From a virus (lineage: Duplodnaviria > Heunggongvirae > Uroviricota > Caudoviricetes): a stretch of 53,323 nucleotides of DNA. Below the pieces are notes generated by a model. It saw nothing but the letters and a program-made list of their open reading frames with translations. It searched no databases and was not told the DNA's origin. Shown here one piece after another: positions 2,665 to 33,905 of this stretch. The stretch is from IMG/VR virus record IMGVR_UViG_3300042564_003265; one strand, written 5' to 3'. Position 1 is the stretch's first letter. The number at the start of each line of letters is the position of its first letter. The position numbers and the translations under genes are program-made.

Positions 2665-3438
2665 TTATTTAGGTAAATAATCAGGAAAATTGGATTTGAT
2701 AAACTGAAGTAGTCTTTTGGAGTATTCTTCGTTGTGTTTTGGGGTTGCGTGCTTACCATCGATAGAAAATTCACGGAAATCCCCATATTCACCATCGAAC
2801 CGATATTTGTCCGAATATTCGTTATCCATTAGGAAAGAACCGTTCCATATATATGGAATATTTCTGTTCTCCAAAAAGTTGGTGATTAGTAGGTGGTTTT
2901 TATACCAATTAATCAAATCGTTCTCATCGTGTGTAATTCTGGCAATTGATTTGTATTCCTCCTTACCTTCAGAATCTTCCTTAAAATAACCCCAAGGTGT
3001 CATATGGAATGGTTCCAACTCACCGTTGTATCTGTAGTATTCTTTACGAGATGGGTAGGTATACATTATGTTAACCAAGTTTGGTCTAATCTTCTGTGTA
3101 AGTGTGATGATACACCTTGCAATATAATCGTTACTCCTACCACCGAACCCTAAGTTCAAATCAACCCCATTACTTATCTGTCTTGAGAAATGATGTGGCC
3201 AGGTTTGGTTGTCACTCACCCCAACACCCTCAGTATGGGAACACCCGACTGACATAATTCTAAATCCGTCTGTGTATAAAGAATCTCCTCTAAACCCCAT
3301 TTCATTGTATGTGTAGGTATTTGTTTCCGACGTGTCAGAACCGGATATGTTGAAGGTTTTATTCCTGCGTTCGTCCAATCTCCAAGAATGGTTACCAACC
3401 TCAAACCCCGAACTTGTCCAAAACTTCATTGACTTCAT
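2665..3438 (-). CDS. SGNH/GDSL-fold protein (esterase or acyltransferase-like)
   Basis: GCSHTEG block I, NLGFGGRSN block II, C-terminal DGKH. Confidence 0.7.
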   Translation of the reverse strand: MKSMKFWTSSGFEVGNHSWRLDERRNKTFNISGSDTSETNTYTYNEMGFRGDSLYTDGFRIMSVGCSHTEGVGVSDNQTWPHHFSRQISNGVDLNLGFGGRSNDYIARCIITLTQKIRPNLVNIMYTYPSRKEYYRYNGELEPFHMTPWGYFKEDSEGKEEYKSIARITHDENDLINWYKNHLLITNFLENRNIPYIWNGSFLMDNEYSDKYRFDGEYGDFREFSIDGKHATPKHNEEYSKRLLQFIKSNFPDYLPK

Positions 3439-4133
3439 ATTAATCTTGTGGTTTTTGTGAAAAAACTAACCATATTCTTATCTGACATATGACAGACACC
3501 GTTTATGTCCATATCATCAAAAGATGGGTTATGGTTGAATAGGTAATTTATATCACTAAAGTATAAATTTAAATATTGTTGGTTTAAGGTTATTGGTGGT
3601 ACGTTATTATATTTTACATTAAAGTATTCATAATTCCTATCCAAGATGTCTAAAACATTTTGGTATGTTTCATTTATTCTTTTGTAGTCATTGGTGGCAA
3701 TTATAGAGGTGTTATTCAACTCATCAAAACTTATAGGTTGAGTCGAATATCTTTCATATATTTCATTGAAACTCTCAATTTGACTTTCTGTTAGTGAGTG
3801 TTTATAACATAAATTCAATTTATTATCATCTATGATATTTTGTAGTTTACTAATGTCCTTCACTATTAAGTCATTATCCAAATGTATGAATGGGAACGAT
3901 ATCTCAGACAATACTTTTAATTTTGGGTAGGACCATATTATGTTTTTTTTATATTTTTCATCCACATCAAACTCCACCCATTCATATCCTAAACTTGTGT
4001 CCCTGAAATAATCTTTATCCGAATAAATCATCGGTTTTATATTCTGATTATTTAAATTCTCAATGGAGTACCTTAAATAAATTTCGGTAACTTCTTTGAG
4101 TCTAACCGGTAGATATGTGAACACAATTTTCAT
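3435..4133 (-). CDS. DUF6734-like putative GT-A nucleotide-sugar transferase
   Basis: WSYPKL...PFIHLDNDL motif with DxD, shared with 14485-15423 and 18531-19556. Confidence 0.55.
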   Translation of the reverse strand: MKIVFTYLPVRLKEVTEIYLRYSIENLNNQNIKPMIYSDKDYFRDTSLGYEWVEFDVDEKYKKNIIWSYPKLKVLSEISFPFIHLDNDLIVKDISKLQNIIDDNKLNLCYKHSLTESQIESFNEIYERYSTQPISFDELNNTSIIATNDYKRINETYQNVLDILDRNYEYFNVKYNNVPPITLNQQYLNLYFSDINYLFNHNPSFDDMDINGVCHMSDKNMVSFFTKTTRLI

Positions 4134-5377
4134 TACAACAACGGTCGTTTTGGTATTGGTTCATCCGTAATTGGACCATTTATAATCATATCCAACATTG
4201 TGTTTTCCTTGTGTAACCTTTCAATAAAAATGTTATGACATTCTAAAATCCAATCCTTACATAGTTGGTAATTGTTATCAAAATCACTAATGAAGGTTCT
4301 TATAAAGTCAGCAAATAGTTTGGCATTTCCTTGATACATTTTGGATTCATCATAAAAAGGATGTTTTCGAATACCTGTTAATTCCATTAAACAATCATAA
4401 GGATATGAATGTGTTGAAACGAATGGGACATTGGCAATGATTAACCCCAATGACTTCTCGCTCAAATATTGACTGTGGTAATCGGCGGAATTATGTGCCC
4501 AAGATTCGTCACAGATTTGAATTTTAGACATTGGTAATATTCTTAAAAAATAATCAAGACCAACAGTTATGTTAGTTAATATTCTTAGATTTTGAAAATC
4601 AATATCGGAGTCGTAGTCATTTAGGAACGCACCTTCAATTTTTCTATACTTTGGTTGTACCGAGTCTTTCTCAATCACATTTGTTTGTGAAACAAATATA
4701 TCTTCAATGTGTGTTAGTTCTTCAGCAATTCTTACTCTAAGTGGTTTATGTGCCCTTACCGAATACCCCATTTTATATTTAGGAACAATTACATCACTAA
4801 TGTTTTTATAATCATAAAACCATCTAATACTAATCATCTCATTCCATTGAAAAATGATATTGGTGAATGGGTTATATAAATTTGGGTGTTTACTTAATAC
4901 AATCTTATTTGTGAAGACGTTATCGGTTAATATGTAATGATTAGTCAGTCTAAGGATTTGATTTTCAATCTCCTCAATTTGACTTGTCCCATCTGTCTTT
5001 ACTTTAGCGGTATCATTTTTTATGAATATTTTTTCAGTTCTAAACAAACAAACTATCCAGTTTTTTTTATCTTCAATTAAATCTGCAATTCTTTCTATAA
5101 TTGCAAATGAATCTGAACCTCTGTGTTCTATACCATCAAAATTCCTATCCTGTCCTCTTTGTCTAAGTGCACCAAAAAAATCAATTATATGAATCCCTTC
5201 TTCATCATTTATTTCAGGATTAAAGGTCACCTCAAAATCTTGTCCCCCATATTCAAATGTAATATCTCTAATGGCACCTTCGGTATTATCGATTTCCGAC
5301 ATTACCTTATTTTTCACATTATGAAAAAACTTTTGGAAAAGAATATCTGTGTAATAATGATGAACGTATATTTTCAT
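4133..5377 (-). CDS. Putative glycosyltransferase-like protein (SEK-x-x-(K)P family, divergent member)
   Basis: C-terminal YLSEKSLGLIIANVPFV resembles motifs in 20286-21557, 23768-25042 and 30388-31671. Confidence 0.4.
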   Translation of the reverse strand: MKIYVHHYYTDILFQKFFHNVKNKVMSEIDNTEGAIRDITFEYGGQDFEVTFNPEINDEEGIHIIDFFGALRQRGQDRNFDGIEHRGSDSFAIIERIADLIEDKKNWIVCLFRTEKIFIKNDTAKVKTDGTSQIEEIENQILRLTNHYILTDNVFTNKIVLSKHPNLYNPFTNIIFQWNEMISIRWFYDYKNISDVIVPKYKMGYSVRAHKPLRVRIAEELTHIEDIFVSQTNVIEKDSVQPKYRKIEGAFLNDYDSDIDFQNLRILTNITVGLDYFLRILPMSKIQICDESWAHNSADYHSQYLSEKSLGLIIANVPFVSTHSYPYDCLMELTGIRKHPFYDESKMYQGNAKLFADFIRTFISDFDNNYQLCKDWILECHNIFIERLHKENTMLDMIINGPITDEPIPKRPLL

Positions 5378-5380
5378 TAA

Positions 5381-5872
5381 TTAAATAAGTTTACTTTTAT
5401 CTCTTTTACCTCTTCTCAATCTACCGGTACCATTTGAATCAAAGATGTCTTCGTAGTATGTAATTGGTATATTGAGGTTTACGGACAACTCGTTGATGTC
5501 TTTATTCCATTTTACTATATCGTTATAACACATTTCGAAAATGTCTGAAGGTACATCTTCATATAGATATGGATTGTTTGAATTATAACTTCTTGTTTTT
5601 GAATAGTAAGTTTGAAACGCGTGGGATTCTACACATTCCTTAATGTTTCTTCTGGTTAGTAATATAACCTCATCAAACTCTTGACTCAATTCTAAGTTGT
5701 TCGGATGATGACAAATAATTGTTTTTACAACTACATCTTTTTCTTTATTGTATATAACTCTATCTGTCCCATCGAATGGTTCAAACAATGGTTTAAATCC
5801 TTTCTCATCCGCAATTTTATTCAACAACGATGTTGAACCAGTTCTTGGTAGTGCAATTATCAACACACTCAT
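5381..5872 (-). CDS. Small sulfotransferase-like P-loop protein
   Basis: N-terminal IALPRTGSTSL (PAPS 5'-phosphosulfate loop-like), FEPF, and LLTRRN 3'-phosphate-binding-like motif. Confidence 0.6.
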   Translation of the reverse strand: MSVLIIALPRTGSTSLLNKIADEKGFKPLFEPFDGTDRVIYNKEKDVVVKTIICHHPNNLELSQEFDEVILLTRRNIKECVESHAFQTYYSKTRSYNSNNPYLYEDVPSDIFEMCYNDIVKWNKDINELSVNLNIPITYYEDIFDSNGTGRLRRGKRDKSKLI

Positions 5873-6435
5873 AACAATGTTTTATTAACTTTAACTCTTG
5901 GGTATTCAAAATCAGTTTCAGTCATCCAAATGTTTAGTGCATATCTTTTACCCTTTGTAACCGGTAGCACTCCGTGATATGTCTGAGAACCATTAAATGA
6001 AATACTATCACCTAATTTTAAATCGCATAACGTGAGACCATCCAATGTTTCGAAATGGAACGGGGGATTTTCTTCTTCAGTTAAAACAAATTGACCCCCT
6101 TCAAAATTATCCGATAAGACAATGACTGTAGTTAGTTCACTCGATTTATCTTTATGTAAATTAAGATACCTACCATCATAGTATGATGTCAAACTAATAT
6201 TAAAATTCTTTAGATTAAAAGTGGAGTAATCAAACCATAATTTAAATTCTTCGTTTTTGTAGTTACCTGTTAATTTATCAATTATTTTCTTTTTAAATTC
6301 ATCATCATATATTCTTCGACAATCCCAATGTTCTGTTGGGTTATAAGAAAATGGTTCCCCAAACTCAAGACAAAAATTAATTATGTCTTTAGCCTCTTCC
6401 CTACCGCAGAAATTGTTATTTATGTTATAATTCAT
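5869..6435 (-). CDS. Fe(II)/2-oxoglutarate oxygenase (prolyl-hydroxylase-like)
   Basis: LHKD...FEGGQF...YHGVLPVTKGKRYALNIW. Confidence 0.85.
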   Translation of the reverse strand: MNYNINNNFCGREEAKDIINFCLEFGEPFSYNPTEHWDCRRIYDDEFKKKIIDKLTGNYKNEEFKLWFDYSTFNLKNFNISLTSYYDGRYLNLHKDKSSELTTVIVLSDNFEGGQFVLTEEENPPFHFETLDGLTLCDLKLGDSISFNGSQTYHGVLPVTKGKRYALNIWMTETDFEYPRVKVNKTLL

Positions 6436-7253
6436 ATCAAATACGAATTTTTAGATTTATTTTGTGTTAATAAGTTATTGTCTGTTATGAATTTATATAA
6501 TTCATCTGCAATTAATTTATAACCATTACTATTTGGGTGTTTACCCGCTGTATTTTCAGTCCATTGATTCTCATCTTCCCATACATCCTTTCTTTTTGTG
6601 TCGATTAATAAATCCGCCATTGTTTTGTCTTTATATCCCCAATAATGAGATTCATCAATCAAATTTGTTTTGTCTATACTATCAATAATATCATTATTAA
6701 TCATAGTGTCAAACGCATCACAAAAAACATATCTAATACCCATCTGTTTGAACATAAATTGTAAATAAAGAACGTAGTTTTGATTTACAATATCGTAATA
6801 GGTATCGGTGTATAGATTGGTAATGAAATAATCCCTATAGTCTTTTTCAAACCTACTGAAGTTTGATAGATTTCCTTTACCTCCTCCGAAAATGTGTTTG
6901 AATAAATGGTTTTTACTTTTGTATCGTTTACCCCAAATAAAAAAATCATCTTCATTGGGAAAGAAAGGTAACGAATCTCTCAAAGATGAGGACCACATAA
7001 TAACAACGAAATCATCTTGATTGATGATTCCGTTTTTTAAATTATGATGTATTGTATTAAAAATTGCGTTGTTGGAAAAACCTCCAACACCATCGTTTTG
7101 AAATTCACAATTAAGTAAATCTGATAGGTGTTTCGGCCAACAATATTTGTGTCTTATAATTGTTCTTTCTTCCGGCACGTCAGTCTTCTCCTCCTCACTA
7201 ATGTTACCACCAACTCCTTCAGTCCAACTATCTCCATATGTGAACAATCTCAT
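6432..7253 (-). CDS. SGNH/GDSL-fold protein
   Basis: YGDSWTEG, GVGGFSN, GKHPNSNGYKLIA. Confidence 0.75.
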   Translation of the reverse strand: MRLFTYGDSWTEGVGGNISEEEKTDVPEERTIIRHKYCWPKHLSDLLNCEFQNDGVGGFSNNAIFNTIHHNLKNGIINQDDFVVIMWSSSLRDSLPFFPNEDDFFIWGKRYKSKNHLFKHIFGGGKGNLSNFSRFEKDYRDYFITNLYTDTYYDIVNQNYVLYLQFMFKQMGIRYVFCDAFDTMINNDIIDSIDKTNLIDESHYWGYKDKTMADLLIDTKRKDVWEDENQWTENTAGKHPNSNGYKLIADELYKFITDNNLLTQNKSKNSYLI

Positions 7254-7256
7254 ACA

Positions 7257-7397
7257 TTAACTCAAATGTTTTTCTTTAATCTTATTCACAACCTCTTGAA
7301 ATGCGGTCGCTACTTTAGTTTTTAAATCATTTGATAATGGTGCAACAATTGCCTTAATTGTTTGTGCTGGTCTTTCTACTTTTTCTTTTACTGCCAT
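7257..7397 (-). CDS. 46-aa hypothetical protein (MAVKEKVERPAQTIKAIVAPLSNDLKTKVATAFQEVVNKIKEKHLS)
   Basis: Below the ORF-track cutoff. ATG at 7397, TAA at 7257-7259; fills the gap between two genes almost exactly. Confidence 0.6.
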   Translation of the reverse strand: MAVKEKVERPAQTIKAIVAPLSNDLKTKVATAFQEVVNKIKEKHLS

Positions 7398-7414
7398 ATT
7401 ATGTTTATTTTATT

Positions 7415-8905
7415 TTAAAGTTTAGGTATCGGCGCATTACTACAACCAGGACAATACCAACTGTTACAATAGTGACCACAATAGTTCCAAGGACACCAAC
7501 ACGTGTTGTGCATCACACTAAAATCACCATCACCAATATCCACTAAGAACAAATCTGAAGATTCGAAGTCCAAACTGTATATAGTTTTTTGTGCGTGTTC
7601 CATCTCTAACCCTGTAATTTCAACAGTGGTTAATAGATTTGTGTCGGAGTCTGTAATTACTAATTTATCACCAACGTACATTTTGTTAACTCTTTCAAAT
7701 CTGGTTGCTGTTGAGCCTGATTCTTCAATATAATAAGTTGCTGATGGTGCATCAGTCCAAGTTCTACCATCCGATAATGTTATTCTGATATAAATGGTAT
7801 CAACCTCGGAAGACACCATACTAACTAAGGTTGTACCTGTTTGTATTAAGGTTGAATTATCTTGAGCAACACTACTATCCCAACCAAAAGTATCAATCTT
7901 ACTTTGTTCAAATTTAGATGCGTGGTTATCATTTAAATCCACATAATCGATAGAACGAACATAATCACCTAATTGAATAGTATCGACATCCAATAATGTT
8001 CCATCGTATTTTAAAATAACACTATCATCATCGGTGTGGTAATCATTCTTTGCGTAATTACCCAATTCTTTGGTGATGTATTTGTATCTACTTTTTTGAT
8101 TCAATTTATTTGTTCCTGCAACAAATTCATCCGATGTAAATGTTAACGGTATAATTGTTGATTGTGTGTATCCACCCATATGAATCACATCCAAATCAGA
8201 ACCATAGATAATATCGATACTTCTAATAATAGAATAACGACCCTCAATTAAGTTGTCCTCTGAAAATATAAATTCTTGTACTAAGTGATTCGCGGGTACT
8301 TCATTTTTTAATGTCATTAGTTCAGTGGCATCAGAAACTCTATAAAGAGCAGGATAATCTAAAGGACTGTAAACCGGATTTCTTGGTTTTACTAATGTAT
8401 TTGGATTCGTTGTTGTTTCATAGTCCGCGTCACCTAACGTATCTAAATTTAAAGAATCAGACGTGAAATATGTCTTTGGAACATATGTTGTTCCACTCAT
8501 TAACACAAAAAATTCAAATTTGTCAGCACAATATGTTTCATCAACCAATGCAGTCGTATCGAACGATTGTCTTAATATGAATTTATCGTTAGAATCTTCA
8601 ATATATGGGACAGTAACAGAATTTAACGGTACCATATAGTCCGTAAAAGATATGTTGTTTTCTAAACATTTCTCCTCCAATATTTTCTTGAATCTATATT
8701 GTTCGGTTAATGGTTTGTACGCATCCCCTTCAGTCCAAATAAAATGAAATTCAGTAATGTTATTACTGACTAACATTGTAAATAAAGAAGTGTAATCTAA
8801 CAAATCTGCTCCCTCATTATATATTGTGGTGTTGGTGTTTATTTCTAAGAATTTCACCGACTCACCTGATTGTAGTAAATCACTACCGATTATAGTTGCT
8901 TTCAT
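7415..8905 (-). CDS. Fusion: circularly permuted ATP-grasp-like domain + Hint (intein-like) domain + C-terminal 29-aa Cys/Trp-rich peptide
   Basis: N-terminal GSD...KFLEINTN, then LVKPR and LVQEFI. Hint block A-like SVILKYDGTLLDVDTIQLGDYV, block F-like IYSLDFESSDLFLV, block G VMHN followed by TCWCPWNYCGHYCNSWYCPGCSNAPIPKL. Confidence 0.8.
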   Translation of the reverse strand: MKATIIGSDLLQSGESVKFLEINTNTTIYNEGADLLDYTSLFTMLVSNNITEFHFIWTEGDAYKPLTEQYRFKKILEEKCLENNISFTDYMVPLNSVTVPYIEDSNDKFILRQSFDTTALVDETYCADKFEFFVLMSGTTYVPKTYFTSDSLNLDTLGDADYETTTNPNTLVKPRNPVYSPLDYPALYRVSDATELMTLKNEVPANHLVQEFIFSEDNLIEGRYSIIRSIDIIYGSDLDVIHMGGYTQSTIIPLTFTSDEFVAGTNKLNQKSRYKYITKELGNYAKNDYHTDDDSVILKYDGTLLDVDTIQLGDYVRSIDYVDLNDNHASKFEQSKIDTFGWDSSVAQDNSTLIQTGTTLVSMVSSEVDTIYIRITLSDGRTWTDAPSATYYIEESGSTATRFERVNKMYVGDKLVITDSDTNLLTTVEITGLEMEHAQKTIYSLDFESSDLFLVDIGDGDFSVMHNTCWCPWNYCGHYCNSWYCPGCSNAPIPKL

Positions 8906-8923
8906 AATTTTTTTTTCCTAACA

Positions 8924-8930
8924 ATAAATA
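8924..8930 (-). promoter_or_regulatory. TATTTAT motif, candidate late promoter element
   Basis: 18 nt upstream of ATG 8905. Confidence 0.35.
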
Positions 8931-8993
8931 TATCTATAAAATTATTAATAGAAAAGGATATTTACTATTTTAGATATATATGTATATATTATT

Positions 8994-9281
8994 TTATATT
9001 ATTGTATTCGTATTTTTTTTGGGTTGTGGCTTCATATGTTCCGAGTCAACATCTTTCCAAAACCCCTTAGTACAAGGGTTAAAGTTTTTAGAAAATACTT
9101 TCTTATTTAATGGACATCCGCAATCCCCACAATATGCCGACCACTTCACCCCCTTCAACACTTCTTTCCTATACTCACAACCCATACACACCCCTAATCT
9201 TTTTTGTGCCAATTCTTCCTGTTCAGTCGTTGGGTTAAACGAGGCCTTCCAAGCGTCAAATATTTCTTTATAGTCTATCAT
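8994..9281 (-). CDS. Small Cys-rich metal-binding protein (DUF6171-like)
   Basis: RLGVCMGC...CGDCGCPL.KK...PC..GFW pattern. Confidence 0.6.
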   Translation of the reverse strand: MIDYKEIFDAWKASFNPTTEQEELAQKRLGVCMGCEYRKEVLKGVKWSAYCGDCGCPLNKKVFSKNFNPCTKGFWKDVDSEHMKPQPKKNTNTII

Positions 9282-10069
9282 ATTAAAGTTTTTTGAGACT
9301 TCGGGAAGTCGTAATAATCATAAATAGTATTGTATCTTTTTATGAATTCGTCATCTAATATTAAATTACATTCCATATGTTTACTTGAATTTACGGAGTG
9401 TAGTTTAAATGGTTTACCTAACTTCTCTGATACCCAATCTTCCAATTTATCCATTTCATTAAAATCAAACCAAATTATGTTTGGGTCGTTATTTGTCCAA
9501 TGAGATATTGGAGTTAATAATATATCAATCATATTAACTGCGTAACCTTTTGTGTTTGATTTAAAAAATTCCTCTTCGGATTTATTAAATTTAGAGGTTA
9601 CTGAGATGTCTATTCTTTCGTCTATTATTTTCAAATCAATTAGAAAGTCACATATAACATCCCATCGTTTTTTTTTATTTATCACATCATCTTTGGTGAA
9701 AAAAAATAATTCATCTAAGGTCATTTTAGAGAAAACATCATAGATTCGATGAAACCCCATACGTTGTAAATCAAACAAAACGTGTTTATATAGTGAATAG
9801 AATCTCTCGTGTCTTTGTCTCTTAACCGCAATAACCGGATACTCAACCCCAAATTTATTCTGTAAATCAACTATCGATTCGTGTCCGTGATAGATGTAGT
9901 TCATTAAAGTACTTTTGTCAATTGATTTAAAATCAATGTCAGCATTTGCAGTTTCCCACTCACCATTATGTGTTTGTACATCAACATCGTTAAGAATACA
10001 AGAATAATGAAATGCTGTAGATGCACATCTCGGTAAACTTAAATAAAAAAACTTATTATCAATTAACAT
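9278..10069 (-). CDS. Sulfotransferase family protein
   Basis: FYLSLPRCASTAFH loop, YHGH, and AVKRQRHERFYSLY (RxPxxRxxSxY-like). Confidence 0.65.
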   Translation of the reverse strand: MLIDNKFFYLSLPRCASTAFHYSCILNDVDVQTHNGEWETANADIDFKSIDKSTLMNYIYHGHESIVDLQNKFGVEYPVIAVKRQRHERFYSLYKHVLFDLQRMGFHRIYDVFSKMTLDELFFFTKDDVINKKKRWDVICDFLIDLKIIDERIDISVTSKFNKSEEEFFKSNTKGYAVNMIDILLTPISHWTNNDPNIIWFDFNEMDKLEDWVSEKLGKPFKLHSVNSSKHMECNLILDDEFIKRYNTIYDYYDFPKSQKTLI

Positions 10070-10638
10070 TACAGTAACGACTTTTTAATTGTTTTTGACG
10101 GCCACACGTTTATTGAATATCTTTCTCCGCCGGTTACCTTATCAACTGAATGTACTATATTCGAATCGAATATGAAAACACTACCTTGTTTCTTATTTAC
10201 AACATAATCGATATCATTCATTCTATATTTCACTTCCCCATCTTCATAATCGTCGTTAAGTTGGATGATGTATGTGATGGTTGCCCCATTTAAAATTTCG
10301 TGACTATCGGGGTGCCAGTCTAAAAAGTCCCCAATTCCGTATCTGTTGAATGAATATTTTGGTACTCCGTTGTATATTATATTATTAAACGGGTTCAATT
10401 CATTTGACAAATCGATTATTTTTTTAGAAAGAGATTTAATTGTTGGGTCCTCTAATGATTCATCGGTAAAATAACAACCCATTCGTTTATTACCCTCATA
10501 TTCCAAATTTTCCGCAATAAGTTTACCATTAACAAAACGTGAAGATTTCATTTGGATTAATTCGGTGGAATTACCTATATCAATAATAGATTTACATTCT
10601 TCCTCCGTTAAAAAATTCTCAATGTATTTTGTGAACAT
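10069..10638 (-). CDS. Fe(II)/2-oxoglutarate oxygenase
   Basis: FLDWHPD...LNDDYEDGE...VHSVDKVTGGERYSINVW. Confidence 0.9.
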   Translation of the reverse strand: MFTKYIENFLTEEECKSIIDIGNSTELIQMKSSRFVNGKLIAENLEYEGNKRMGCYFTDESLEDPTIKSLSKKIIDLSNELNPFNNIIYNGVPKYSFNRYGIGDFLDWHPDSHEILNGATITYIIQLNDDYEDGEVKYRMNDIDYVVNKKQGSVFIFDSNIVHSVDKVTGGERYSINVWPSKTIKKSLL

Positions 10639-11291
10639 TATATTAATGATTTTTCTTTTTTAATGAATTCAAAACCAATGTTACCCGCTAAAACTATCCT
10701 ATCAATTGTTGAGTTGGGTGCGTTATTCGGTGAATGTGGCATATCTGCTTCCATTATTATCAAATCATCTTCCTCAGGTCTAATCCAATACTCTTTTTTA
10801 TTCTTACCTCTAAAATATAAAACACCATCTTCACCATTCATCACATCAGGCATTTGTATGTAATAAACATAAGTGTAGTTTGGTGGGAATGACTTCATTT
10901 CCTTATTAATGTCCGTATGAACGTGAAATTTATCAACACCTTTTAGTTCGTTGTGTTTAAATTGTAATTGTACTGGATTTTGTGAACGAACAACGTTAAC
11001 CCAAGCATCGGTATTAATCTTATTGTATGGTATATTTTTTTCTTCGTAAAGTTCTTTACAAAAATTAATACCTTCTTGAATCACTTTATCTAAATTGGTT
11101 TCGATATTAATCTCACCAATAAAATTTAAATTATTGTTCCATTCTTTTTTGTAACCGAATCCATCGGTTTTCACCTCCGGTTGGGATTCTATGATTAAGT
11201 ATGATTCTTTTAAAAAAGATGACTTATCACTAACCTTATTTAATTTGGTTTTCCATATAAAAGTCGTGTCGTCAAAATATAATTTCTCCAT
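10638..11291 (-). CDS. 2OG-Fe(II) oxygenase-like cupin (HxH type)
   Basis: AWVNVVR, FHVH, YVYYIQMP, GVLYF, MPHSP...RIVLAGNI. Confidence 0.65.
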   Translation of the reverse strand: MEKLYFDDTTFIWKTKLNKVSDKSSFLKESYLIIESQPEVKTDGFGYKKEWNNNLNFIGEINIETNLDKVIQEGINFCKELYEEKNIPYNKINTDAWVNVVRSQNPVQLQFKHNELKGVDKFHVHTDINKEMKSFPPNYTYVYYIQMPDVMNGEDGVLYFRGKNKKEYWIRPEEDDLIIMEADMPHSPNNAPNSTIDRIVLAGNIGFEFIKKEKSLI

Positions 11292-11292
11292 A

Positions 11293-12537
11293 CTATATCA
11301 ATTCCTTTTTTAATACTTTTCTATTCTTTCTGAATATGTTTAAGTAATTGTTCACAAAAAAAGTAAGTTCATTTGGTTCAATTCCTTCTAACTCAAATGA
11401 TTCGAGTAACTCCATATCATTTCTAACCGTTATTGAATTGTTTTTATCCAATATTTTTTTCAATTTCGAAGGGATTGGCATTGATGTACAATCTTTCCAA
11501 AATTGGGTATCGTCTCTCTCACACAAATAATGATATCTAATGAAATTTAAATTCTGTTCATTAATTTGATAACACCACATATTATATTTCTCAACATCCC
11601 CTTCGTCAAAATTAATATCAATTAATTTCTTTAACTGCATAATTGTTGTCATCAAAGAAGTTGCTTCTAACGGCTCTATAAAACCATATGATAGACCGAT
11701 GGAAACTGAGTTACCAATCCAACTTCTTTTATAGGTGCCAGGATTAAAATCAAATACTTTTTGTATTGTAACTTCGTGACCCAAATATTTTTCAACCTCA
11801 CTCTTAGCATCTTCTACGGTTATGTATTTGTTATTGAAAACGTAACCACATCCCCATCTGTGTTGTAGCGGGATTTTAAACATCCACCCACAGTCCATCG
11901 ACGTCATTTCAGTATATGTTTTATCATTTACCTGATATTCATTATCTTGTGGTAGGAAAAACGCTAGCGCTTTATTCATCATAAGATAGTCCGAATAACT
12001 GTACCATTTTTCTTTGTGAACCCCCTCAATAATAAGTCTTGCAAACCCACTACAATCAAATACAAAATCTAAATCAATTATATCACCATCTTTTAATTTT
12101 AACTCTGTGATATTTTCATTTTCATTTACAATACTCTCAACCTCACCATCAACCCACTCAACTCCTCTACTCACCGCAATTTCTTTCAAATATTTTGCAA
12201 CCAATCTTGCGTCAAAGTGATATGCATACGATTTGTTTACTTCATTCGGACCATCACCAAAAAACAAATGTTTTGATAATTCATTTTGACCCGTCCAATT
12301 GTATAAATGTAACCCTCCCTTTACTGTGGATTTGGTTCTTTCAAAAAATTCTTTTTGGTTTATATCCAATAGTGATAACATCTTACCGAAGTTAGATGTT
12401 CCACCTTCACCCGCACCTAAAATTCCTATTTTGGAACTTTCAATTAAAGTAACTTTAGTGTTCCCCCAAAATTTATTTACAACCAATGCGGTTAACCATC
12501 CCGCAGTTCCTCCACCTATTATTACTACTTTTTTCAT
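11293..12537 (-). CDS. Flavin-dependent tryptophan-halogenase-family protein
   Basis: IIGGGTAGW (FAD), GAGEG, TVKGG (catalytic-Lys position), YAYHFDA, GWMFKIP (WxWxIP-like), FIEPLEATS. Confidence 0.85.
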   Translation of the reverse strand: MKKVVIIGGGTAGWLTALVVNKFWGNTKVTLIESSKIGILGAGEGGTSNFGKMLSLLDINQKEFFERTKSTVKGGLHLYNWTGQNELSKHLFFGDGPNEVNKSYAYHFDARLVAKYLKEIAVSRGVEWVDGEVESIVNENENITELKLKDGDIIDLDFVFDCSGFARLIIEGVHKEKWYSYSDYLMMNKALAFFLPQDNEYQVNDKTYTEMTSMDCGWMFKIPLQHRWGCGYVFNNKYITVEDAKSEVEKYLGHEVTIQKVFDFNPGTYKRSWIGNSVSIGLSYGFIEPLEATSLMTTIMQLKKLIDINFDEGDVEKYNMWCYQINEQNLNFIRYHYLCERDDTQFWKDCTSMPIPSKLKKILDKNNSITVRNDMELLESFELEGIEPNELTFFVNNYLNIFRKNRKVLKKELI

Positions 12538-12538
12538 A

Positions 12539-12877
12539 TTACGGTATTAAATGTCTCACCAATATTGTTAATGATATACAAATCCATATTGTGTTGAAAG
12601 CAATCAACGTGGGTAAATCTTTTCTCATTGATGCCCAAATCAATAGTGATGATGTTAGTAAGGTTAGAAAATGCATATACCATAATTCAATACCGAACAC
12701 CAATCCAGGTATGAGAATTATAGCTTTAGTAAACCAAGATGCAAATTCTATTGTATTATAATCTGTCCAATATGATTTACTTAAAAACATTTTATATCTA
12801 TCAAATATTCGTTTCCATCCAATGATGGTATATAAAAATGTAATTGCAATTATAAACGATAATACATATTTCATCAT
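12539..12877 (-). CDS. Small multi-pass membrane protein
   Basis: 112 aa with 3-4 hydrophobic segments. Confidence 0.6.
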   Translation of the reverse strand: MMKYVLSFIIAITFLYTIIGWKRIFDRYKMFLSKSYWTDYNTIEFASWFTKAIILIPGLVFGIELWYMHFLTLLTSSLLIWASMRKDLPTLIAFNTIWICISLTILVRHLIP

Positions 12878-13422
12878 ATTAAATTTTGTTGTGAAGAATT
12901 AGTTTTTATTATTGATACCCAATTAACTAATGAGTATCGTACTCCATCTTCAACCGGAGTAACTCTGTGACGTAAATTAGAATCGAAAATATATAAAGTA
13001 CCTACTTTATTGTGAATAGGTACCAATTCCCCTTTTGGGTTTTTTATTTCAAGTACCCCACCAGTGTAATCATCATTTAGTTGGATTACTGTTGAGGTGA
13101 ATCTATCCATAAAAGTAGTTGAGTCTCTGTCGGTGTGCCAACCATAAAATTCTCCGACTTTATATTCGGTAAACTGAAATGGTCCGAGTCCCGTTACTTC
13201 CATTCCATTAATAATGAATGAGTCTTTGAGTATGTCTTTTAGTTTTTGATTAACATCACCTAAGTCGTTAACCCAACCTACCGACGATTTTCTTTCGTTA
13301 GGGTTTCCACCGATAGTACCCGCAACAGATAAACTAATGTCTTCTTTGCACCTATTTAATATGTGAAAACATTCGTCCTTTGTTAAAAAATCCTCAACTA
13401 CTCTGATTTCATTATTTCTCAC
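12874..13422 (-). CDS. Fe(II)/2-oxoglutarate oxygenase (PKHD-type)
   Basis: QFTEY, GWHTD, LNDDYTGG, RHRVTPVEDGVRYSLVNW. Confidence 0.9.
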   Translation of the reverse strand: MRNNEIRVVEDFLTKDECFHILNRCKEDISLSVAGTIGGNPNERKSSVGWVNDLGDVNQKLKDILKDSFIINGMEVTGLGPFQFTEYKVGEFYGWHTDRDSTTFMDRFTSTVIQLNDDYTGGVLEIKNPKGELVPIHNKVGTLYIFDSNLRHRVTPVEDGVRYSLVNWVSIIKTNSSQQNLI

Positions 13423-13633
13423 TTTCCTTTTTTAAACCGTATTTTATGTATTTGTACCAAGTTCTTTCGTGTAGATAATATAATAACATTTTTGTTATAA
13501 CTTCCACCCCACCTATTGCCATACCGATTTTTAAATCTCCGGTTATAATCCAACTTAAAATAATTGTGTCCAATGTACCAACGATTCTCCAAGTTATGGT
13601 TTTAGCTATGTGTCTTTTCTTTTCTACTAACAT
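13412..13633 (-). CDS. DUF2061-like small membrane protein
   Basis: RHIAKTITWRIVGTLDT...KMLLYYLHERTW signature. Confidence 0.75.
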   Translation of the reverse strand: MLVEKKRHIAKTITWRIVGTLDTIILSWIITGDLKIGMAIGGVEVITKMLLYYLHERTWYKYIKYGLKKESEK

Positions 13634-13634
13634 A

Positions 13635-14015
13635 TTAATCTATATTTTCATTATACATTGAAGTCCCGTCGGATTTCATATTACCGGTTCTAATAGCGGT
13701 TCCACTAATTGCTGCAACATCTGCTGGTGGTTCGTGATAGATTACATCGTAACCAACTCCTCTACCATAATTGACGCTATCAATGTCGGGAATTATTGAC
13801 AACAATATCTTATCGAAATTATCATTAAAGAAAGGTTCTTTAATTAAATCTTGAAACACCTCTTGGGCTGTTTTAGGATTGTTTTCATCAACCTCAACAT
13901 CTCTAATTGCGACCCAAACGTTTTTACCTTGGTCTAATTGTTGTCTAATTAACCATTCGTGGCCTTTATGCCAGTTCTGCCATCTTCCGATGTACAATGA
14001 AAATTTTTTACTCAT
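13635..14015 (-). CDS. HxGH nucleotidyltransferase domain, possible minimal ATP sulfurylase
   Basis: IGRWQNWHKGH and ISGTAIR motifs; adjacent to cysC. Confidence 0.65.
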   Translation of the reverse strand: MSKKFSLYIGRWQNWHKGHEWLIRQQLDQGKNVWVAIRDVEVDENNPKTAQEVFQDLIKEPFFNDNFDKILLSIIPDIDSVNYGRGVGYDVIYHEPPADVAAISGTAIRTGNMKSDGTSMYNENID

Positions 14016-14446
14016 AAAAATAATTTATTAATTAATTCGGTGTAAGATTCTATCTCACCTGTATTAGTGGTATCTATTGATATATAATTTTCAGTTGGGG
14101 GTTGGTAATCTTTAACGTGAAAGTCTTCTCTACCTCTAAGGTCTGTTGTATGAATGTAAATCTCAATTACGTCAGATTTACTTTTGAGGTCATCTCTTAA
14201 ATCTTTGTATGGTGACACTAATGACGCCACTACATTATATCCCTTTTCATTTAAGAAGTGAGCAATATCCATTGCTTTTTGGATGTTTGCACGTCTACCA
14301 TTTTCGGAATAATCTTTATTTTTGAAGATGTCTCTCAAATCATCACCATCAATGTGTATGGTATTCCCTACATTTAGATAATCAACTAACTTTTCAGCTA
14401 AAGTTGTTTTACCAGCACCGGGTTGTCCTGTAAACCAATATATCAT
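14012..14446 (-). CDS. cysC: Adenylyl-sulfate (APS) kinase
   Basis: WFTGQPGAGKTT, HIDGDDLR, LVSPY..R, YQPP. Start moved to ATG 14446 (MIYW) because a promoter overlaps the track start. Confidence 0.85.
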   Translation of the reverse strand: MIYWFTGQPGAGKTTLAEKLVDYLNVGNTIHIDGDDLRDIFKNKDYSENGRRANIQKAMDIAHFLNEKGYNVVASLVSPYKDLRDDLKSKSDVIEIYIHTTDLRGREDFHVKDYQPPTENYISIDTTNTGEIESYTELINKLFL

Positions 14447-14453
14447 ATGATAT

Positions 14454-14482
14454 AATATACACAAAAATTAAGGGAAAGTCAA
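14454..14482 (-). promoter_or_regulatory. Sigma70-like promoter TTGACT-N17-TATATT
   Basis: Read directly; the -10 box ends 7 nt before ATG 14446. Confidence 0.65.
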
Positions 14483-14484
14483 AT

Positions 14485-15423
14485 CTAAAATAAATTCAAA
14501 TAGTCTTCGAATCCGTTAGTAGTTACAATGTGTTTCCATTCGTTAATTCTTTCGGTTCTGTATTCCTCATTATTAACGATATGTGATTTTTTTAACCATA
14601 TGTGGTCATATTCAATCTTTGGGGTATTTCTCTCACATCCATCGTATTCCATCCAATCCGAAATGTATCCTTGTTTGTGTCGATTATTGTATGGGTCAGC
14701 AAATTGTATGAAGATTCGGTTCTCAACATCCCCAACCTTTAAATTTAAATCTCTAATGGTGTAACCTAATATGTTTTGGTCCGACATCAACCATAACCAA
14801 TCTAAAACTTTATCGTATGTTTTATTAACAATTCTCATATGAAGTTCTCGATACTTCTTAAGTAATAACTTATTGTTAACAAATAAGAATGATGTGTTTG
14901 GTATTGCCATCCTTTCTTCAAATTCAGGCATATGTAATTTTACGTCTCTCAATTGATAATCGTGTATAAACATATTGCCTCTTAACATTTCCCAATGTGT
15001 GTGAACCACATCGTAATTAAATAACCATTTAGGTAGTGGTGTTTTAATTATTAAATCCAAGTCTAAAAATAAAAACGGGGGTTTCTCGTGACAGATTGAG
15101 AATATCTTACCGCTAGTCCAGAACTGTGCCGGATTCACTAACGTACTATCCAATTTATTTAAAACATCAACATCAACCTCATCAAATAAATCAAGTATAC
15201 CTATTTTTTGGTAATAATCTCGACCTACGGTATCTGTATAAAGTTTAATTGGGACTCCACCGAATTTCTTGGCACTTGTAATTGATGCCAATTGCATATA
15301 TAACTCATACGGTTGTAGGTTATATTCATCTTGATTATCAACGACTGTGATATCTTTTTTATATCCGTTAAACTTATCTCGATGAAAGAATGGTTTAGTC
15401 CAATTTACAAAAATTATCTTCAT
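14485..15423 (-). CDS. DUF6734-like putative GT-A transferase
   Basis: IKLYTD, FWTSGKI...PFLFLDLDL, PNTSFL. Confidence 0.55.
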   Translation of the reverse strand: MKIIFVNWTKPFFHRDKFNGYKKDITVVDNQDEYNLQPYELYMQLASITSAKKFGGVPIKLYTDTVGRDYYQKIGILDLFDEVDVDVLNKLDSTLVNPAQFWTSGKIFSICHEKPPFLFLDLDLIIKTPLPKWLFNYDVVHTHWEMLRGNMFIHDYQLRDVKLHMPEFEERMAIPNTSFLFVNNKLLLKKYRELHMRIVNKTYDKVLDWLWLMSDQNILGYTIRDLNLKVGDVENRIFIQFADPYNNRHKQGYISDWMEYDGCERNTPKIEYDHIWLKKSHIVNNEEYRTERINEWKHIVTTNGFEDYLNLF

Positions 15424-15424
15424 A

Positions 15425-16213
15425 CTATTCGTGAATAAAATATAGATTTTTATTCAATTTGTCAATCGAATACTTATTGAGTTTTATTTGTTTTCCCCAC
15501 ATCTCCAAGTCATCCTTACCCAAACAAACGACCGGTTCAATCTTATCCAAATATTCATCAGTCGTTTCAATAAACCTATTAAAATATATCATAGCACAAA
15601 CCTCCTCAATATTTGATACTATACCATATTGTCTCTGTATAATGTTTAATTCTTTAAAAAAGTCTTTGTTTCTACAATAGATAAATCCGGCGTTTGGAAT
15701 GACTATACCGTTATCGAATTTCCATTTTCCTCTTCTTTGTATTTGATAGAAGAACATATTATAATAGTGGATGTCGTCACTAACGAAGGGACTAATTGTT
15801 TTATAGTCCTTTAAAATTTCATTAGGGTAAAAATATAACGGTATTTGAATGTCCGATTTACCTCTAAGAAGTGTATAGAAATCATCATCCAATGGTTTTT
15901 GAATTTCACAATCCCAGTCAAGGAATAATATCTCATCGTACATTTCCATTGCACGTTCCAAAGCCATTATTTTATGGAAAAAATTAAACTCGACATTTAC
16001 AATACTCTCACCCATATAATGATATGGATAACCTATCTTGTCCAAAAAATCACAATTAACTTTATCCCAAACAAAAACAATCTGATTATTTAGATTATGT
16101 TTTTCATCTAACTCTTTAGTTCTTAAGCATTCGGAATGGTAAGAATTTAAATTCTTTTCAAAAAATTGGTGGTCACTTTTACCCCAAAGACATCTTACTA
16201 TTTTCATATCCAT
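15425..16213 (-). CDS. Putative GT-A nucleotide-diphospho-sugar transferase
   Basis: FHKIMAL...ILFLDWD (DxD), PNAGFIY. Confidence 0.5.
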   Translation of the reverse strand: MDMKIVRCLWGKSDHQFFEKNLNSYHSECLRTKELDEKHNLNNQIVFVWDKVNCDFLDKIGYPYHYMGESIVNVEFNFFHKIMALERAMEMYDEILFLDWDCEIQKPLDDDFYTLLRGKSDIQIPLYFYPNEILKDYKTISPFVSDDIHYYNMFFYQIQRRGKWKFDNGIVIPNAGFIYCRNKDFFKELNIIQRQYGIVSNIEEVCAMIYFNRFIETTDEYLDKIEPVVCLGKDDLEMWGKQIKLNKYSIDKLNKNLYFIHE

Positions 16214-16769
16214 TCGGTGCTAGGTTAGAAGGAAAATGATTTTTTAATTGTTTGAAAAATGGGTCGGTAACAAATTTTAAATTTAAGTTGTTTATCTTAA
16301 CCATTTCCCAATCAAAAGCCTGTGTTATTTTGTTGCTGTCAAAATGATTTAAAATCTTTTTCGTTCCTTCTAAAGATACGAAATATGAATGACAATCGAT
16401 AGTCTTTTTACCATCGGACCCAATATTAAAAACGTCAAAATCATTGAAATTGACATTATTGAAATCAAATTCATTTATCAAATCAACATCATCCTCGAGT
16501 ATTAATATATTGAGGTTTTGTTGATTTGCTGTCCGTATTAAATTTACGTGTGATAACAACGTTGCCATTACGGCTCGTTGATTGACGTTGAATTGATAGT
16601 AATCAACATTACTGAACAGATTACTTATAGTTTCATCTGTAATGTCGTCCGACTCAACAGCATTATAAAACTTAAAATCAAGTCTTAATTTATTCATTAA
16701 ATCATTCATATGGTCTCTTCTCTTTATATCACTTTTTAACGATATGATATAGATAAGATAGTTCTCCAT
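16179..16769 (-). CDS. Glycosyltransferase family 25-like protein
   Basis: YIISL...RR..M, FYNAV, SH, LILEDD, HSYFVS..G..K.L. Confidence 0.75.
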   Translation of the reverse strand: MENYLIYIISLKSDIKRRDHMNDLMNKLRLDFKFYNAVESDDITDETISNLFSNVDYYQFNVNQRAVMATLLSHVNLIRTANQQNLNILILEDDVDLINEFDFNNVNFNDFDVFNIGSDGKKTIDCHSYFVSLEGTKKILNHFDSNKITQAFDWEMVKINNLNLKFVTDPFFKQLKNHFPSNLAPNGYENSKMSLG

Positions 16770-25044: not shown

Positions 25045-26811
25045 ATGAAAAAAATATTAATCACAGGCTGTTCAGGTTTAGTTGGTATCCACTTAGTAAA
25101 AGAGACTATTATGCGTAATCATCTCGTTATAGGTGTTGATATTAGAAAATCTGATGAATTACCCGAATCTGACAGATTCAAATTTTACGAATTAGATTTA
25201 ACTAAGGAAGAGAATGTTAGAAAACTATTTGAGGAAGAAAAACCTGACGCAGTTTTCAATTGTTTTGGTGTTAAGGGGTCACCATTAAAGGCTAAAACAC
25301 AACCGGTGGATTTCCTTTACCCATCTATGAAAATAAACACTGAGATTATCCATCAATGTGCCAAAAACAATGTTTGGTTAGTCTTTGTGAGTTCGGTTGG
25401 TGTATATGCACCGGCAGAAAAGTTTCTTGAAACTGATGTGTGGAAAACATTACCATCGGAGAACGATTGGTTCCCTGCTTGGTCAAAGAGAATTGGTGAA
25501 CTATTAATTGGTTCATATAGAAAACAGTACGGTTATAAAAAATGGACCATTGTTAGACCTGCCAATATTTTTGGTGAGTACGATGACTTTAGTGGTAATG
25601 GAACCGTTATTTCAAGTACTATTAAAAAAGTATATGAAGCAGAAGAAGGTAGTGAAATTGAAGCTTGGGGTGATGGTACACCGGTTAGAGATTTCATTTA
25701 TGCTAATGATGTTGCAGTTGCAATTTTAAATTGTTACAAATATAAAATTAATGACATTGTTAATTTAGGTTCAGGTGAAACGATTACAATTAAATCAATG
25801 ATTGAGGAAGTCATTAAGATTAGTGGTAAGAAGTTAACAATTAAATGGGACACCACAAAACCTAATGGTGATATGCGTAGACAGATGGATACAAGTCTAC
25901 AAAACGGTCATCGTTTACTTCCTTTTGTTGGATTCAAAGAAGCACTTAAAAAAACATATGATTACTATGAGAAACATTATGGAAAACTTGATTTGAATTT
26001 AGATATTGAGGAATTTCTTGAAAAGGGATTCTATAGTGGAAAGGTTAGTGAATTCATTAAAGAACACGAATACGAAGATTATAAAAAGAGACTTAAGAAT
26101 ATTATTAAGAAATCAAAAGATAAGGAAGCATATGGGTATCGTTTTGAATTTAGAGTACCAACAGAAATGTCTGAAGAGGGGTTTGATTACTCTAGAACGA
26201 TACCTGCAGAGGAAATACCTGCAAGATGGGAATTTCAGAAAGAAAAGGGATGGGATGTTGTTCAAACTTGGTGGGAGTTAAGAGACACTAAGAATATCTT
26301 TAATGATGATTTATTTTATTTTAGAGATAAAGTTTGTCGATTCCTTCATAAGTTATATCCTGGCTTAAAAGAATGGAATATTGGACACAATGACGGTTTA
26401 ACAATATATGAAAACGGTGATTTCATTGAACCTCATATTGATGGTCAAAATCCTAATAGATTTTGTGTTGTATTAATTTACTTATCACCTGAAAAAGAAT
26501 ATATTGATGGTGGTGGAAAATTAATATTACAAGATAAAGGATATTATGATGAGGTAATTCCTGTTGACGTAAATTTTGCAATATTAGATTTCTCAAAGAA
26601 TAATCCTAATCACGCAGTTGAGGCAGTAAAAAATGATTTCGTAAGATACACCTATATTAACTTCATCGAAAGAAGAGAATTCGGTCCACCAAAAAGATAT
26701 ATAGGTGATGAAGAAGTAATTGAAAAATGGGAACCCGATACTGATGTAACATATAGTTCACCATTTCAAATAAAAAATGAAACAGAAGAAAAAGTTAAAA
26801 AATTAATATGA
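25045..26811 (+). CDS. Fusion: GDP-fucose-synthase-like SDR + C-terminal Fe(II)/2OG oxygenase domain
   Basis: ITGCSGLVG, RPANIFGEYD, WGDGTPVRDFIY; then IEPHIDG...GGGKL...NHAVEAV...RYT. Confidence 0.8.
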   Translation: MKKILITGCSGLVGIHLVKETIMRNHLVIGVDIRKSDELPESDRFKFYELDLTKEENVRKLFEEEKPDAVFNCFGVKGSPLKAKTQPVDFLYPSMKINTEIIHQCAKNNVWLVFVSSVGVYAPAEKFLETDVWKTLPSENDWFPAWSKRIGELLIGSYRKQYGYKKWTIVRPANIFGEYDDFSGNGTVISSTIKKVYEAEEGSEIEAWGDGTPVRDFIYANDVAVAILNCYKYKINDIVNLGSGETITIKSMIEEVIKISGKKLTIKWDTTKPNGDMRRQMDTSLQNGHRLLPFVGFKEALKKTYDYYEKHYGKLDLNLDIEEFLEKGFYSGKVSEFIKEHEYEDYKKRLKNIIKKSKDKEAYGYRFEFRVPTEMSEEGFDYSRTIPAEEIPARWEFQKEKGWDVVQTWWELRDTKNIFNDDLFYFRDKVCRFLHKLYPGLKEWNIGHNDGLTIYENGDFIEPHIDGQNPNRFCVVLIYLSPEKEYIDGGGKLILQDKGYYDEVIPVDVNFAILDFSKNNPNHAVEAVKNDFVRYTYINFIERREFGPPKRYIGDEEVIEKWEPDTDVTYSSPFQIKNETEEKVKKLI

Positions 26812-33125: not shown

Positions 33126-33139
33126 ATTTTTGGTTTTTA

Positions 33140-33168
33140 ATTATAATATACGGAAAAAATACTATAAA
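33140..33168 (-). promoter_or_regulatory. Sigma70-like promoter TTTATA-N17-TATAAT
   Basis: Read directly upstream of ATG 33125. Confidence 0.5.
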
Positions 33169-33905
33169 ACGAATTCTTTAGGTACTTTTTCCAAGAAATA
33201 GTTATTCTTTGATTCGTCAAATATAATTCCGAGGTTGTTTACCGTTTTAAAATTATAAAGACAGAAAATATCTTTGTAGAATGTTTTCGATACTAACTTC
33301 TCAACCTCAGTTTCATAAATTGTTTTGGCGACTTTAATATCTGAAGTTCCTCTAACGATTGAGAAGTGGTATATGTCGAACTCACCGTGATGTCTATGTT
33401 CTTCTATTGGTGTTCCAGGATTTGCACAACCTAAGAATAAACCGGTGTATTTGTAATCATCAATTAATTGATTTTTAAATTCTAATTTATTTGAAACTTC
33501 AAAATTCACATATAAAAAGAATGTATTGTTTTTTCTAACAATTGATAACTTTATTGGTCTGTTCAAATCCTTAGGTTCTACCCCATTGAAGGACACAAAA
33601 TTAAAATCGTCCCAATCTTCCTTATCGGATTTACTCCAAAATTCAAACGCCAATGTTTTACTTTCACTATTATATGTTAAACCTAAGTTTTTACCCGGTT
33701 TACCAAATATTGAGAATATATTATCTTTTTTATAAAGGTCCATTAATCTAACCTCACAGGTTATGACATATGCATCCTCATAAAGAAGTGTTCTAATCTC
33801 TTCCACATCTGTTTTATTGAACTTGGTAACATATTGATTTTCGTGGTGAGTATCTAAATCCCACTTATACATAATCCAATACGGTTCTTTATATTTTATT
33901 CTCAT
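33162..33905 (-). CDS. Stand-alone LamG/ConA-like beta-sandwich protein
   Basis: IFSIFGKPG...GLTYN, LYVNFE, LFLG.ANP...HGEFD; resembles the inserts in the two GT7 proteins. Confidence 0.55.
   Translation of the reverse strand: MRIKYKEPYWIMYKWDLDTHHENQYVTKFNKTDVEEIRTLLYEDAYVITCEVRLMDLYKKDNIFSIFGKPGKNLGLTYNSESKTLAFEFWSKSDKEDWDDFNFVSFNGVEPKDLNRPIKLSIVRKNNTFFLYVNFEVSNKLEFKNQLIDDYKYTGLFLGCANPGTPIEEHRHHGEFDIYHFSIVRGTSDIKVAKTIYETEVEKLVSKTFYKDIFCLYNFKTVNNLGIIFDESKNNYFLEKVPKEFVL

Follow-up and report, generated by a model that had tools for sequence, protein, structure and literature searches.

Does a block of tailoring enzymes in a viral genome act on a peptide that is encoded in its midst? This question is raised by a 53,323-nt DNA fragment of a tailed virus (Caudoviricetes; IMG/VR record IMGVR_UViG_3300042564_003265), the whole of which we call the window. 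On its minus strand, at positions 5381-14464, a tightly packed run of genes, with stops and starts overlapping or abutting, surrounds a gene that we call FUS (7415-8905), whose 496-aa product joins a putative ATP-grasp ligase, a Hint domain and a Cys-rich tail. A first-pass annotation had placed around FUS a flavin-dependent halogenase, four Fe(II)/2-oxoglutarate (2OG) oxygenases, two sulfotransferases, CysC with a nucleotidyltransferase, an SGNH protein and two small membrane proteins. It had proposed a modified-peptide pathway, with incidental adjacency as the alternative. We found that all of the listed genes exist, but that the list had missed the two closest neighbours of FUS (c95 and s46), a short C-terminal tag that the enzymes share, and an extension of the tagged run at 3435-5377. 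Our best explanation, to which we give an even chance, is that the block is one functional module making a modified disulfide-rich peptide, similar to peptides that are synthesized on ribosomes and modified after translation (RiPPs), with the self-released tail of FUS as the substrate.

The FUS protein and its C-terminal peptide

FUS matched no Pfam or PHROG family, and comparison of FUS and of the two sulfotransferase-like proteins, ST263 and ST163, with the PDB by sequence or profile gave nothing significant. We found 574 FUS homologues in 90% clusters, corresponding to 316 clusters at 50% identity. The architecture of FUS was examined in an AlphaFold2 (AF2) model built from a 106-sequence alignment (pLDDT 89, pTM 0.83); an earlier model from a shallow alignment of 17 sequences was discarded (pLDDT 43). 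The first 285 residues (8051-8905) form a putative ATP-grasp-like amide ligase domain of the GspS/YgiC/glutathione-synthetase type. Within the full-length model, residues 1-281 aligned at an rmsd of 4.0-4.3 Å with two ATP-grasp ligases, YgiC at Z 10.1 and GspS at Z 9.4 (VIA-align). They also resembled glutathione synthetases in structure comparison, and a Foldseek search with the model returned YjfC/YgiC matches at E ~3e-6. Across the 106 sequences E21, N23, R112, D122 and R228 are invariant and K173 is conserved, and no sequence family matched this domain.

Residues 290-467 (7505-8038) fold as a Hint domain, which superposes on hedgehog autoprocessing domains, bacterial intein-like (BIL) domains and mini-inteins with Z 16 and an rmsd of 2.0-2.4 Å over 135-148 residues. 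None of the Pfam Hint models detected it. Position 1 (residue 290) is variable and non-nucleophilic in the alignment (His, Lys, Leu, Ile and others), block B reads W-x-D and is without Thr..His, and position +1, just after the domain, is likewise variable and classed as non-nucleophilic (Ala, Pro, Val, Tyr, Ser or Ile). With its position-1 nucleophile gone and Thr..His missing from block B, the domain is not a splicing intein. The terminal His-Asn pair is kept while these other splice residues are lost (H466 in 101 and N467 in 105 of the 106 sequences), so that FUS is predicted to be equipped only for C-terminal cleavage by Asn cyclization.

Variants of the family bear on what this cleavage might do. 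In some of them a second, canonical Hint/PT-HINT domain or a Peptidase_S74 module lies C-terminal to the tail, and since both are self-cleaving, the peptide is bracketed there by self-cleaving elements. Four homologues (P0241, P0253, P0255 and P0264) are without the Cys-rich tail; in them His-Asn is followed by one or two canonical Hint/PT-HINT domains.

The last 29 residues of FUS (468-496; 7418-7504) are the candidate released core peptide, and they are disordered in the AF2 model. Their composition is as first annotated, with 6 Cys, 3 Trp, 3 Tyr and 1 His, together with 4 Pro and 1 Lys. The recurring aromatic-Cys motif that had been pointed out (WC, YC, YC, YC) greatly exceeds chance expectation, as 213 of 350 Cys in this clade stand in such pairs, compared with 77.6 +/- 7.1 in shuffles. 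Outside the Cys columns, tail identity is 0.46, against 0.68-0.72 for the two FUS domains, and the tails are hypervariable across 150 representatives. Across the family the cargo is a Cys-rich peptide of 25-60 residues. An even number of Cys is found in 98.7% of tails (109 have 6 and 42 have 8). Lys occurs in every tail, as a single residue in 132 of 155. The fast divergence, the even Cys count and the aromatic-Cys enrichment suggest that the tail evolves like a RiPP core.

Neighbourhood conservation and a shared C-terminal tag

Conservation of the gene neighbourhood had been named as one check on the proposed pathway. With queries from the near clade and from three distant FUS sub-families, we collected FUS loci from IMG/VR and labelled their open reading frames (ORFs) by profiles grown iteratively from the window proteins, so that a label stands for homology to a window protein rather than for an independent Pfam call. 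Among 168 non-redundant loci, the 85 with 5 kb or more on each side of FUS were counted; they span three deep clades, with identity down to ~25%. Within 5 kb of FUS, c95 was present in 82 of the 85 loci (in 59 of them within 150 bp), a sulfotransferase-like gene in 81 and a prolyl 4-hydroxylase (P4H)-like 2OG oxygenase in 73, an outcome in favour of the pathway. The SGNH gene was found in 59, a relative of the divergent oxygenase 2OG217 in 57, a DUF2061 gene in 51, the nucleotidyltransferase in 47 and the adenosine 5'-phosphosulfate (APS) kinase in 43. The s46 gene (35/85) was present in all 21 near-clade loci, and the halogenase (32/85) in none of the 35 loci of one clade.

The most constant partner, c95 (8994-9281), encodes a tagged 95-aa protein with six conserved Cys (CxxC...CxxCxC...C). 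In an atlas search its relatives were viral hypothetical proteins only, and every c95-anchored locus that we tabulated carries FUS. On the other side, s46 (7257-7397) is an untagged 46-aa ORF immediately after FUS. Gene order differs between the clades: c95 lies upstream of FUS in one and downstream in another, and the genes for supply of 3'-phosphoadenosine 5'-phosphosulfate (PAPS) lie on either side. The clustering has thus been maintained through rearrangement. Together with the retained Hint cleavage residues, the hypervariable even-Cys tail and a tag concentrated at the locus, this clustering in deep clades leads us to argue, from comparison of sequences, that the adjacency of the enzymes to FUS is not incidental.

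Between c95 and FUS lies an AT-rich gap of 88 nt (8906-8993), the largest intergenic gap that we noted in the run, and relatives have a gap of 48-91 nt in the same place. It may carry a promoter of its own for the precursor gene. A promoter and terminator scan of positions 5000-15000 gave counts not above those of shuffles.

The tag itself reads ..[K/N]-x-[L/I]-[L/I] at the C-terminus of the enzymes and of c95, with Ser or Thr at P-2 in many copies. Of the 51 genes of the window, 14 have an [L/I][L/I] ending. Eleven of these are among the 14 genes at 3435-13422, compared with 3 of the 37 genes elsewhere (p 2e-6). The run includes two tagged proteins encoded on the same strand at 3435-5377, one DUF6734-like (232 aa) and one of unknown type (414 aa), which keep synteny in some of the near-clade loci. 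The codons for Leu and Ile vary among the endings, and each of the three stop codons occurs, indicating that the constraint acts on the protein.

The tag is kept by orthologues in all clades. It was found in 61 of 62, 46 of 53 and 38 of 40 ST263-type orthologues of the three clades, and in halogenase orthologues in 39 of 39 cases in the near clade and 18 of 23 in another. Orthologues of FUS, s46, the nucleotidyltransferase NT126 and a GT25-like gene (16179-16769 in the window) are never tagged in any clade, and the APS kinase, DUF2061 and carbamoyltransferase almost never. The distribution therefore divides the enzymes that would have to meet a macromolecular substrate from the suppliers of cofactor. 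In a relative with a complete genome of 335,630 bp, which belongs to a distant clade and has one FUS and a T4-type major capsid gene, the tag is on 9 of the 10 genes after FUS and on 24 of 393 elsewhere (p 5e-10). In Pelagibacter phage HTVC008M and Prochlorococcus phage P-SSM2, which carry halogenase and 2OG genes and are without FUS, 1 of 14 neighbouring proteins ends in [L/I][L/I]. The tag thus accompanies the presence of FUS.

Candidate enzymes, the proposed pathway and its rivals

Three of the four annotated 2OG oxygenases exceed the PF13640 cut-off of 27 bits, with scores of 38-57 bits: 2OG188 (5869-6435; 38.3 bits), 2OG189 (10069-10638; 48.8 bits) and 2OG182 (12874-13422; 56.9 bits). The fourth, the divergent 2OG217 (10638-11291), stays below it at 22.5 bits but has the pattern HxD...H...R, and an HxD...H triad is visible in all four, each of which is tagged. 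Below its cut-off, an NCBIfam model for Fe2+-dependent dioxygenases also matched 2OG189 (E 1e-9) and 2OG182 (E 1e-13), in line with their P4H/PKHD-like character; 2OG188 is P4H-like. Oxygenases of PF13640 are of the prolyl-hydroxylase type and act on peptides. In the proposed pathway they would hydroxylate the tail at Pro or other residues.

The annotation of two sulfotransferases held in part. Neither ST263 (9278-10069; ending KTLI) nor the short ST163 (5381-5872; ending SKLI) has a Pfam match over threshold, the best for ST163 being Sulfotransfer_3 at E 0.21. The PSB loop (P-R-x-x-S-T) and an Arg...Ser motif are invariant in the two families; they appear as R84-x7-S92 in ST263 and as the loop LPRTGSTS and an RRN..ES motif in ST163. 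Eight of 58 relatives weakly match four sulfotransferase Pfam families (E 5e-5 to 6e-3). The best PDB matches of the family profile, SULT1C2 (E 0.014) and HS2ST (E 0.039) in a range of E 0.014-0.05, are non-significant. Adjacent PAPS genes were counted toward the assignment. Both proteins are tagged, and they would sulfate the tail at Tyr or at newly made hydroxyls.

The halogenase is well supported. HAL414 (11293-12537; tagged) matches Trp_halogenase PF04820 at E 3.5e-92 and can be aligned to PyrH, to PrnA and to VirX1, an enzyme of cyanophage origin, with E values of 1e-53 to 1e-55. Against 8fov/9luq it keeps GGGTAGW (GxGxxG), its Lys73 falls on the catalytic Lys, and its third motif reads W-x-F-x-I-P where the family has WxWxIP. 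It has 414 aa compared with 497-554 aa in solved enzymes, with the match stopping near residue 365, and is thus without the C-terminal module of enzymes acting on free tryptophan. It is 31-35% identical to halogenases of cyanophages and of Pelagibacter phage HTVC008M. Where present, it might halogenate Trp or Tyr of the tail. The SGNH protein was likewise found as annotated: SGNH273 (6432-7253) is a tagged SGNH/DUF6071 esterase- or acyltransferase-like protein with 29.5 bits to DUF6071 and a GDSW motif.

As for the annotated CysC and nucleotidyltransferase, the former is a truncated APS kinase (14012-14464; 62.8 bits), whereas NT126 (13635-14015) has an HxGH motif and NMNAT/cytidylyltransferase-like matches that are all sub-threshold. 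With the DUF2061 membrane protein (13412-13633; Pfam match), they form one ordered triad that always stays together, on either side of FUS, and all three are untagged. This constancy suggests a minimal phage PAPS-synthesis unit, in which the 126-aa transferase would replace ATP sulfurylase; the kinase and transferase pair would then provide PAPS locally. The other small membrane protein of the annotation is mem112 (12539-12877), a hydrophobic, untagged protein that occurs sporadically and in few loci.

In the pathway that we favour, FUS would be precursor and scaffold at once, combining its ATP-grasp ligase, a Hint domain limited to C-terminal Asn cyclization and a fast-evolving tail with a single Lys. 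The tagged enzymes, namely the P4H-like oxygenases, the sulfotransferase-like proteins, the SGNH protein and, in some lineages, the truncated halogenase, would be recruited to FUS and would modify the tail there, assisted by the universal c95. The Hint domain would afterwards free the peptide.

A more specific version reverses the usual logic of RiPP recognition, and we hold it to be doubtful. ATP-grasp folds of this kind normally bind the C-terminal carboxylate of a peptide. The ATP-grasp domain of the precursor might accordingly read a C-terminal handle, ..[S/T]-[L/I]-[L/I]-COOH, on the enzymes and c95. The single conserved tail Lys might serve as the ligation amine, perhaps toward the small, Zn-ribbon-like c95 as a LysW-like carrier, before the Hint domain releases the decorated, knotted peptide. 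A complex prediction for FUS and c95 scored 0.01, which speaks neither for nor against such an association.

Several observations weigh against a peptide pathway. Only 32 of the 85 loci have the halogenase, which makes it an optional extra; the positions of Trp and Tyr vary among the tails, and Trp-rich tails also occur in loci without halogenase. Tails of halogenase-positive loci have more Trp (2.75 against 1.23; overall p 4e-5), but we dropped this association as support because it is confounded by clade and not significant within one group (p 0.33). The sulfotransferase identity is weak, drawing as it does on motifs and weak profile matches, and a carbohydrate sulfotransferase is among the best of these. 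Since the loci all belong to a single broad phage lineage, some of the synteny reflects common descent. Sugar-nucleotide and glycosyltransferase genes abound in the wider island, and the tag is also found on a protein of 588 aa (25045-26811, opposite strand) that fuses an NAD-dependent sugar epimerase/dehydratase to a P4H-like 2OG domain. Finally, cyanophages have similar 2OG and halogenase arrays without FUS, which have been interpreted as metabolite or glycan/capsule pathways (PMC2938197, PMC7824862). The annotated pathway is supported by the conserved clustering, the Hint cleavage residues, the hypervariable even-Cys tail and the locus-concentrated tag; a fixed role for the halogenase and conserved Trp or Tyr targets are not supported, and the PAPS genes are mobile.

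One rival, which we consider unlikely, draws on several of these observations: the tagged enzymes would act on another target, such as a glycan (sulfated, carbamoylated or hydroxylated), a metabolite that becomes halogenated, or a virion or host surface protein, while FUS and c95 would be a separate effector whose peptide is released unmodified. It would account for the carbamoyltransferase, the GT25- and GT7-type transferases and the epimerases of the island, and for the tag on the epimerase fusion. The combination of APS kinase, sulfotransferase and carbamoyltransferase recalls glycan tailoring, as does the heparan-sulfate 2-O-sulfotransferase (HS2ST) among the best profile matches, and the reading given to the cyanophage arrays agrees with it. 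However, FUS, c95, the sulfotransferase-like and the 2OG genes travel together through rearrangements in three clades. The tag is concentrated beside FUS, whereas the same enzyme types are untagged in phages without FUS, and the carbamoyltransferase and GT25 genes of the island are themselves untagged.

The tail might instead stay attached, with FUS acting mainly as an ATP-grasp enzyme and its Cys-rich end serving as a metal-binding, regulatory or docking element or as a virion tip; His-Asn would then be structural or serve a slow maturation. We regard this as rather improbable. The ATP-grasp residues are indeed the most conserved part of FUS, the tail is disordered in the model, some homologues end in the S74 chaperone module typical of phage fibres, and large fibre-like genes lie nearby. 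Against this, very divergent sequences keep His-Asn (101-105 of 106) despite the loss of the other splice residues, three different self-cleaving contexts flank the tail, and a hypervariable tail with even Cys is more in keeping with a free, disulfide-rich peptide than with a fixed metal site.

C-terminal hydrophobic motifs with Ser or Thr at P-2 resemble known sorting and degradation signals, and the short motif here, found also on the non-enzyme c95 and matched by the [L/I][L/I] endings of those 24 genes elsewhere in the complete genome, might be only such a signal (for capsid packaging, export, a compartment or turnover) that provides co-localization or co-timing without any action on FUS, but this is very unlikely, as FUS is the sole universal protein of the module that is untagged, and cofactor suppliers of the same operon are untagged too, as expected if the tag marks enzymes that meet a macromolecular substrate.

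Known systems, distribution and the wider island

The pathway that we favour, modification of the FUS tail followed by self-release, has partial parallels. In borosins such as OphMA the core peptide lies at the C-terminus of its own enzyme, in the same gene, and tailoring precedes release. FUS likewise has its core C-terminal to a large enzyme domain in one gene. It differs in that the fused enzyme is an ATP-grasp ligase, release is predicted to be autocatalytic through the Hint domain rather than dependent on a separate protease, and the partner enzymes carry a tag in place of an enzyme-recognized leader on the precursor. The arrangement also resembles BIL and PT-HINT proteins, with a Hint domain directly before a variable C-terminal module, a retained His-Asn and cleavage expected rather than splicing; some variants have true PT-HINT domains after the tail. 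In contrast to these, the cargo of FUS is a Cys-rich peptide and not a toxin domain, and the position-1 nucleophile and block-B Thr..His are lost. Cone-snail venom peptides are short, hypervariable and disulfide-rich, and carry hydroxyproline, bromotryptophan and sulfotyrosine. These decorations match the enzyme set found here, as an analogy only, since the organisms and the biosynthesis are unrelated.

The closest relatives in enzyme content are the tandem 2OG dioxygenase arrays with tryptophan halogenases of Syn9, S-PM2 and P-SSM2 (Iyer et al. 2010, PMC2938197; Iyer et al. 2021, PMC7824862). These too belong to T4-like phages and combine several unrelated 2OG oxygenases with a Trp-halogenase homologue and sometimes a carbamoyltransferase, but they have neither a ligase-Hint-tail gene nor c95 nor the C-terminal tag, and no ribosomal substrate was proposed for them. 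Our literature text searches found these arrays; neither a ligase-Hint-peptide protein nor c95 nor the tag is described in what they returned. New here are the co-occurrence counts in three clades, the genome-wide test of the tag and the control phages without FUS.

If the favoured pathway is correct, tailed phages of lakes and related aquatic habitats would make their own heavily decorated disulfide-rich peptides by an undescribed biosynthetic logic: a ligase-fused precursor, self-release by a degenerate intein-like domain and commonly tagged enzymes. It would offer a candidate substrate for the 2OG oxygenase and halogenase arrays known from T4-like phages and left without an explanation since 2010. 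For biocatalysis, it would supply a self-releasing peptide scaffold together with peptide hydroxylases, sulfotransferases and a compact halogenase. It would also raise the question of whether the peptide is a toxin, a signal, an anti-defence factor or a virion decoration.

In 50,697 GenBank phage records we found no match to FUS or c95 by tblastn, nor to the region by megablast, and in 185,579 prokaryote genomes there was no match to the near-clade pattern. The lone match in the prokaryote genomes, to the pattern of another clade, was a 2,044-bp contig in a metagenome-assembled genome of a Candidatus Diapherotrites archaeon, which is probably a mis-binned phage fragment. In the collections searched, the FUS family is found only in viruses. 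Near-identical DNA was present in lake-water metagenomes of 16 studies, which goes against a marine cyanophage as the source. In IMG/VR the closest record, rated 19% complete, is a fragment of 62 kb, and relatives reach 288-336 kb. As part of our best explanation, the source would be a T4-like jumbo phage of lakes.

A search of sequencing runs of any kind listed no RNA run. A search restricted to RNA listed three metatranscriptome libraries with small shares, in which short contigs were identical or near-identical to parts of FUS (7391-7639, 7384-7605 and 8728-8875). As DNA may be present in libraries of this kind, and as the FUS gene itself served to select the runs, these contigs are at most a weak hint of expression.

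Beyond the run, the window encodes two paralogous twitch-domain radical SAM proteins (31671-35307; NCBIfam NF033640, 316 and 284 bits), one of which ends in the [L/I][L/I] tag, and SPASM/radical SAM genes lie near FUS in relatives. Two tandem proteins at 35304-38161 join a GT7-type galactosyltransferase to a LamG/concanavalin-like lectin domain. Very large ORFs without family matches flank the island at 1-2610 and 44424-52139 (870+, 1455 and 1098 aa), and on the corresponding flank one relative has a 1543-aa Peptidase_S74 protein, which together suggest that the island probably adjoins fibre genes.

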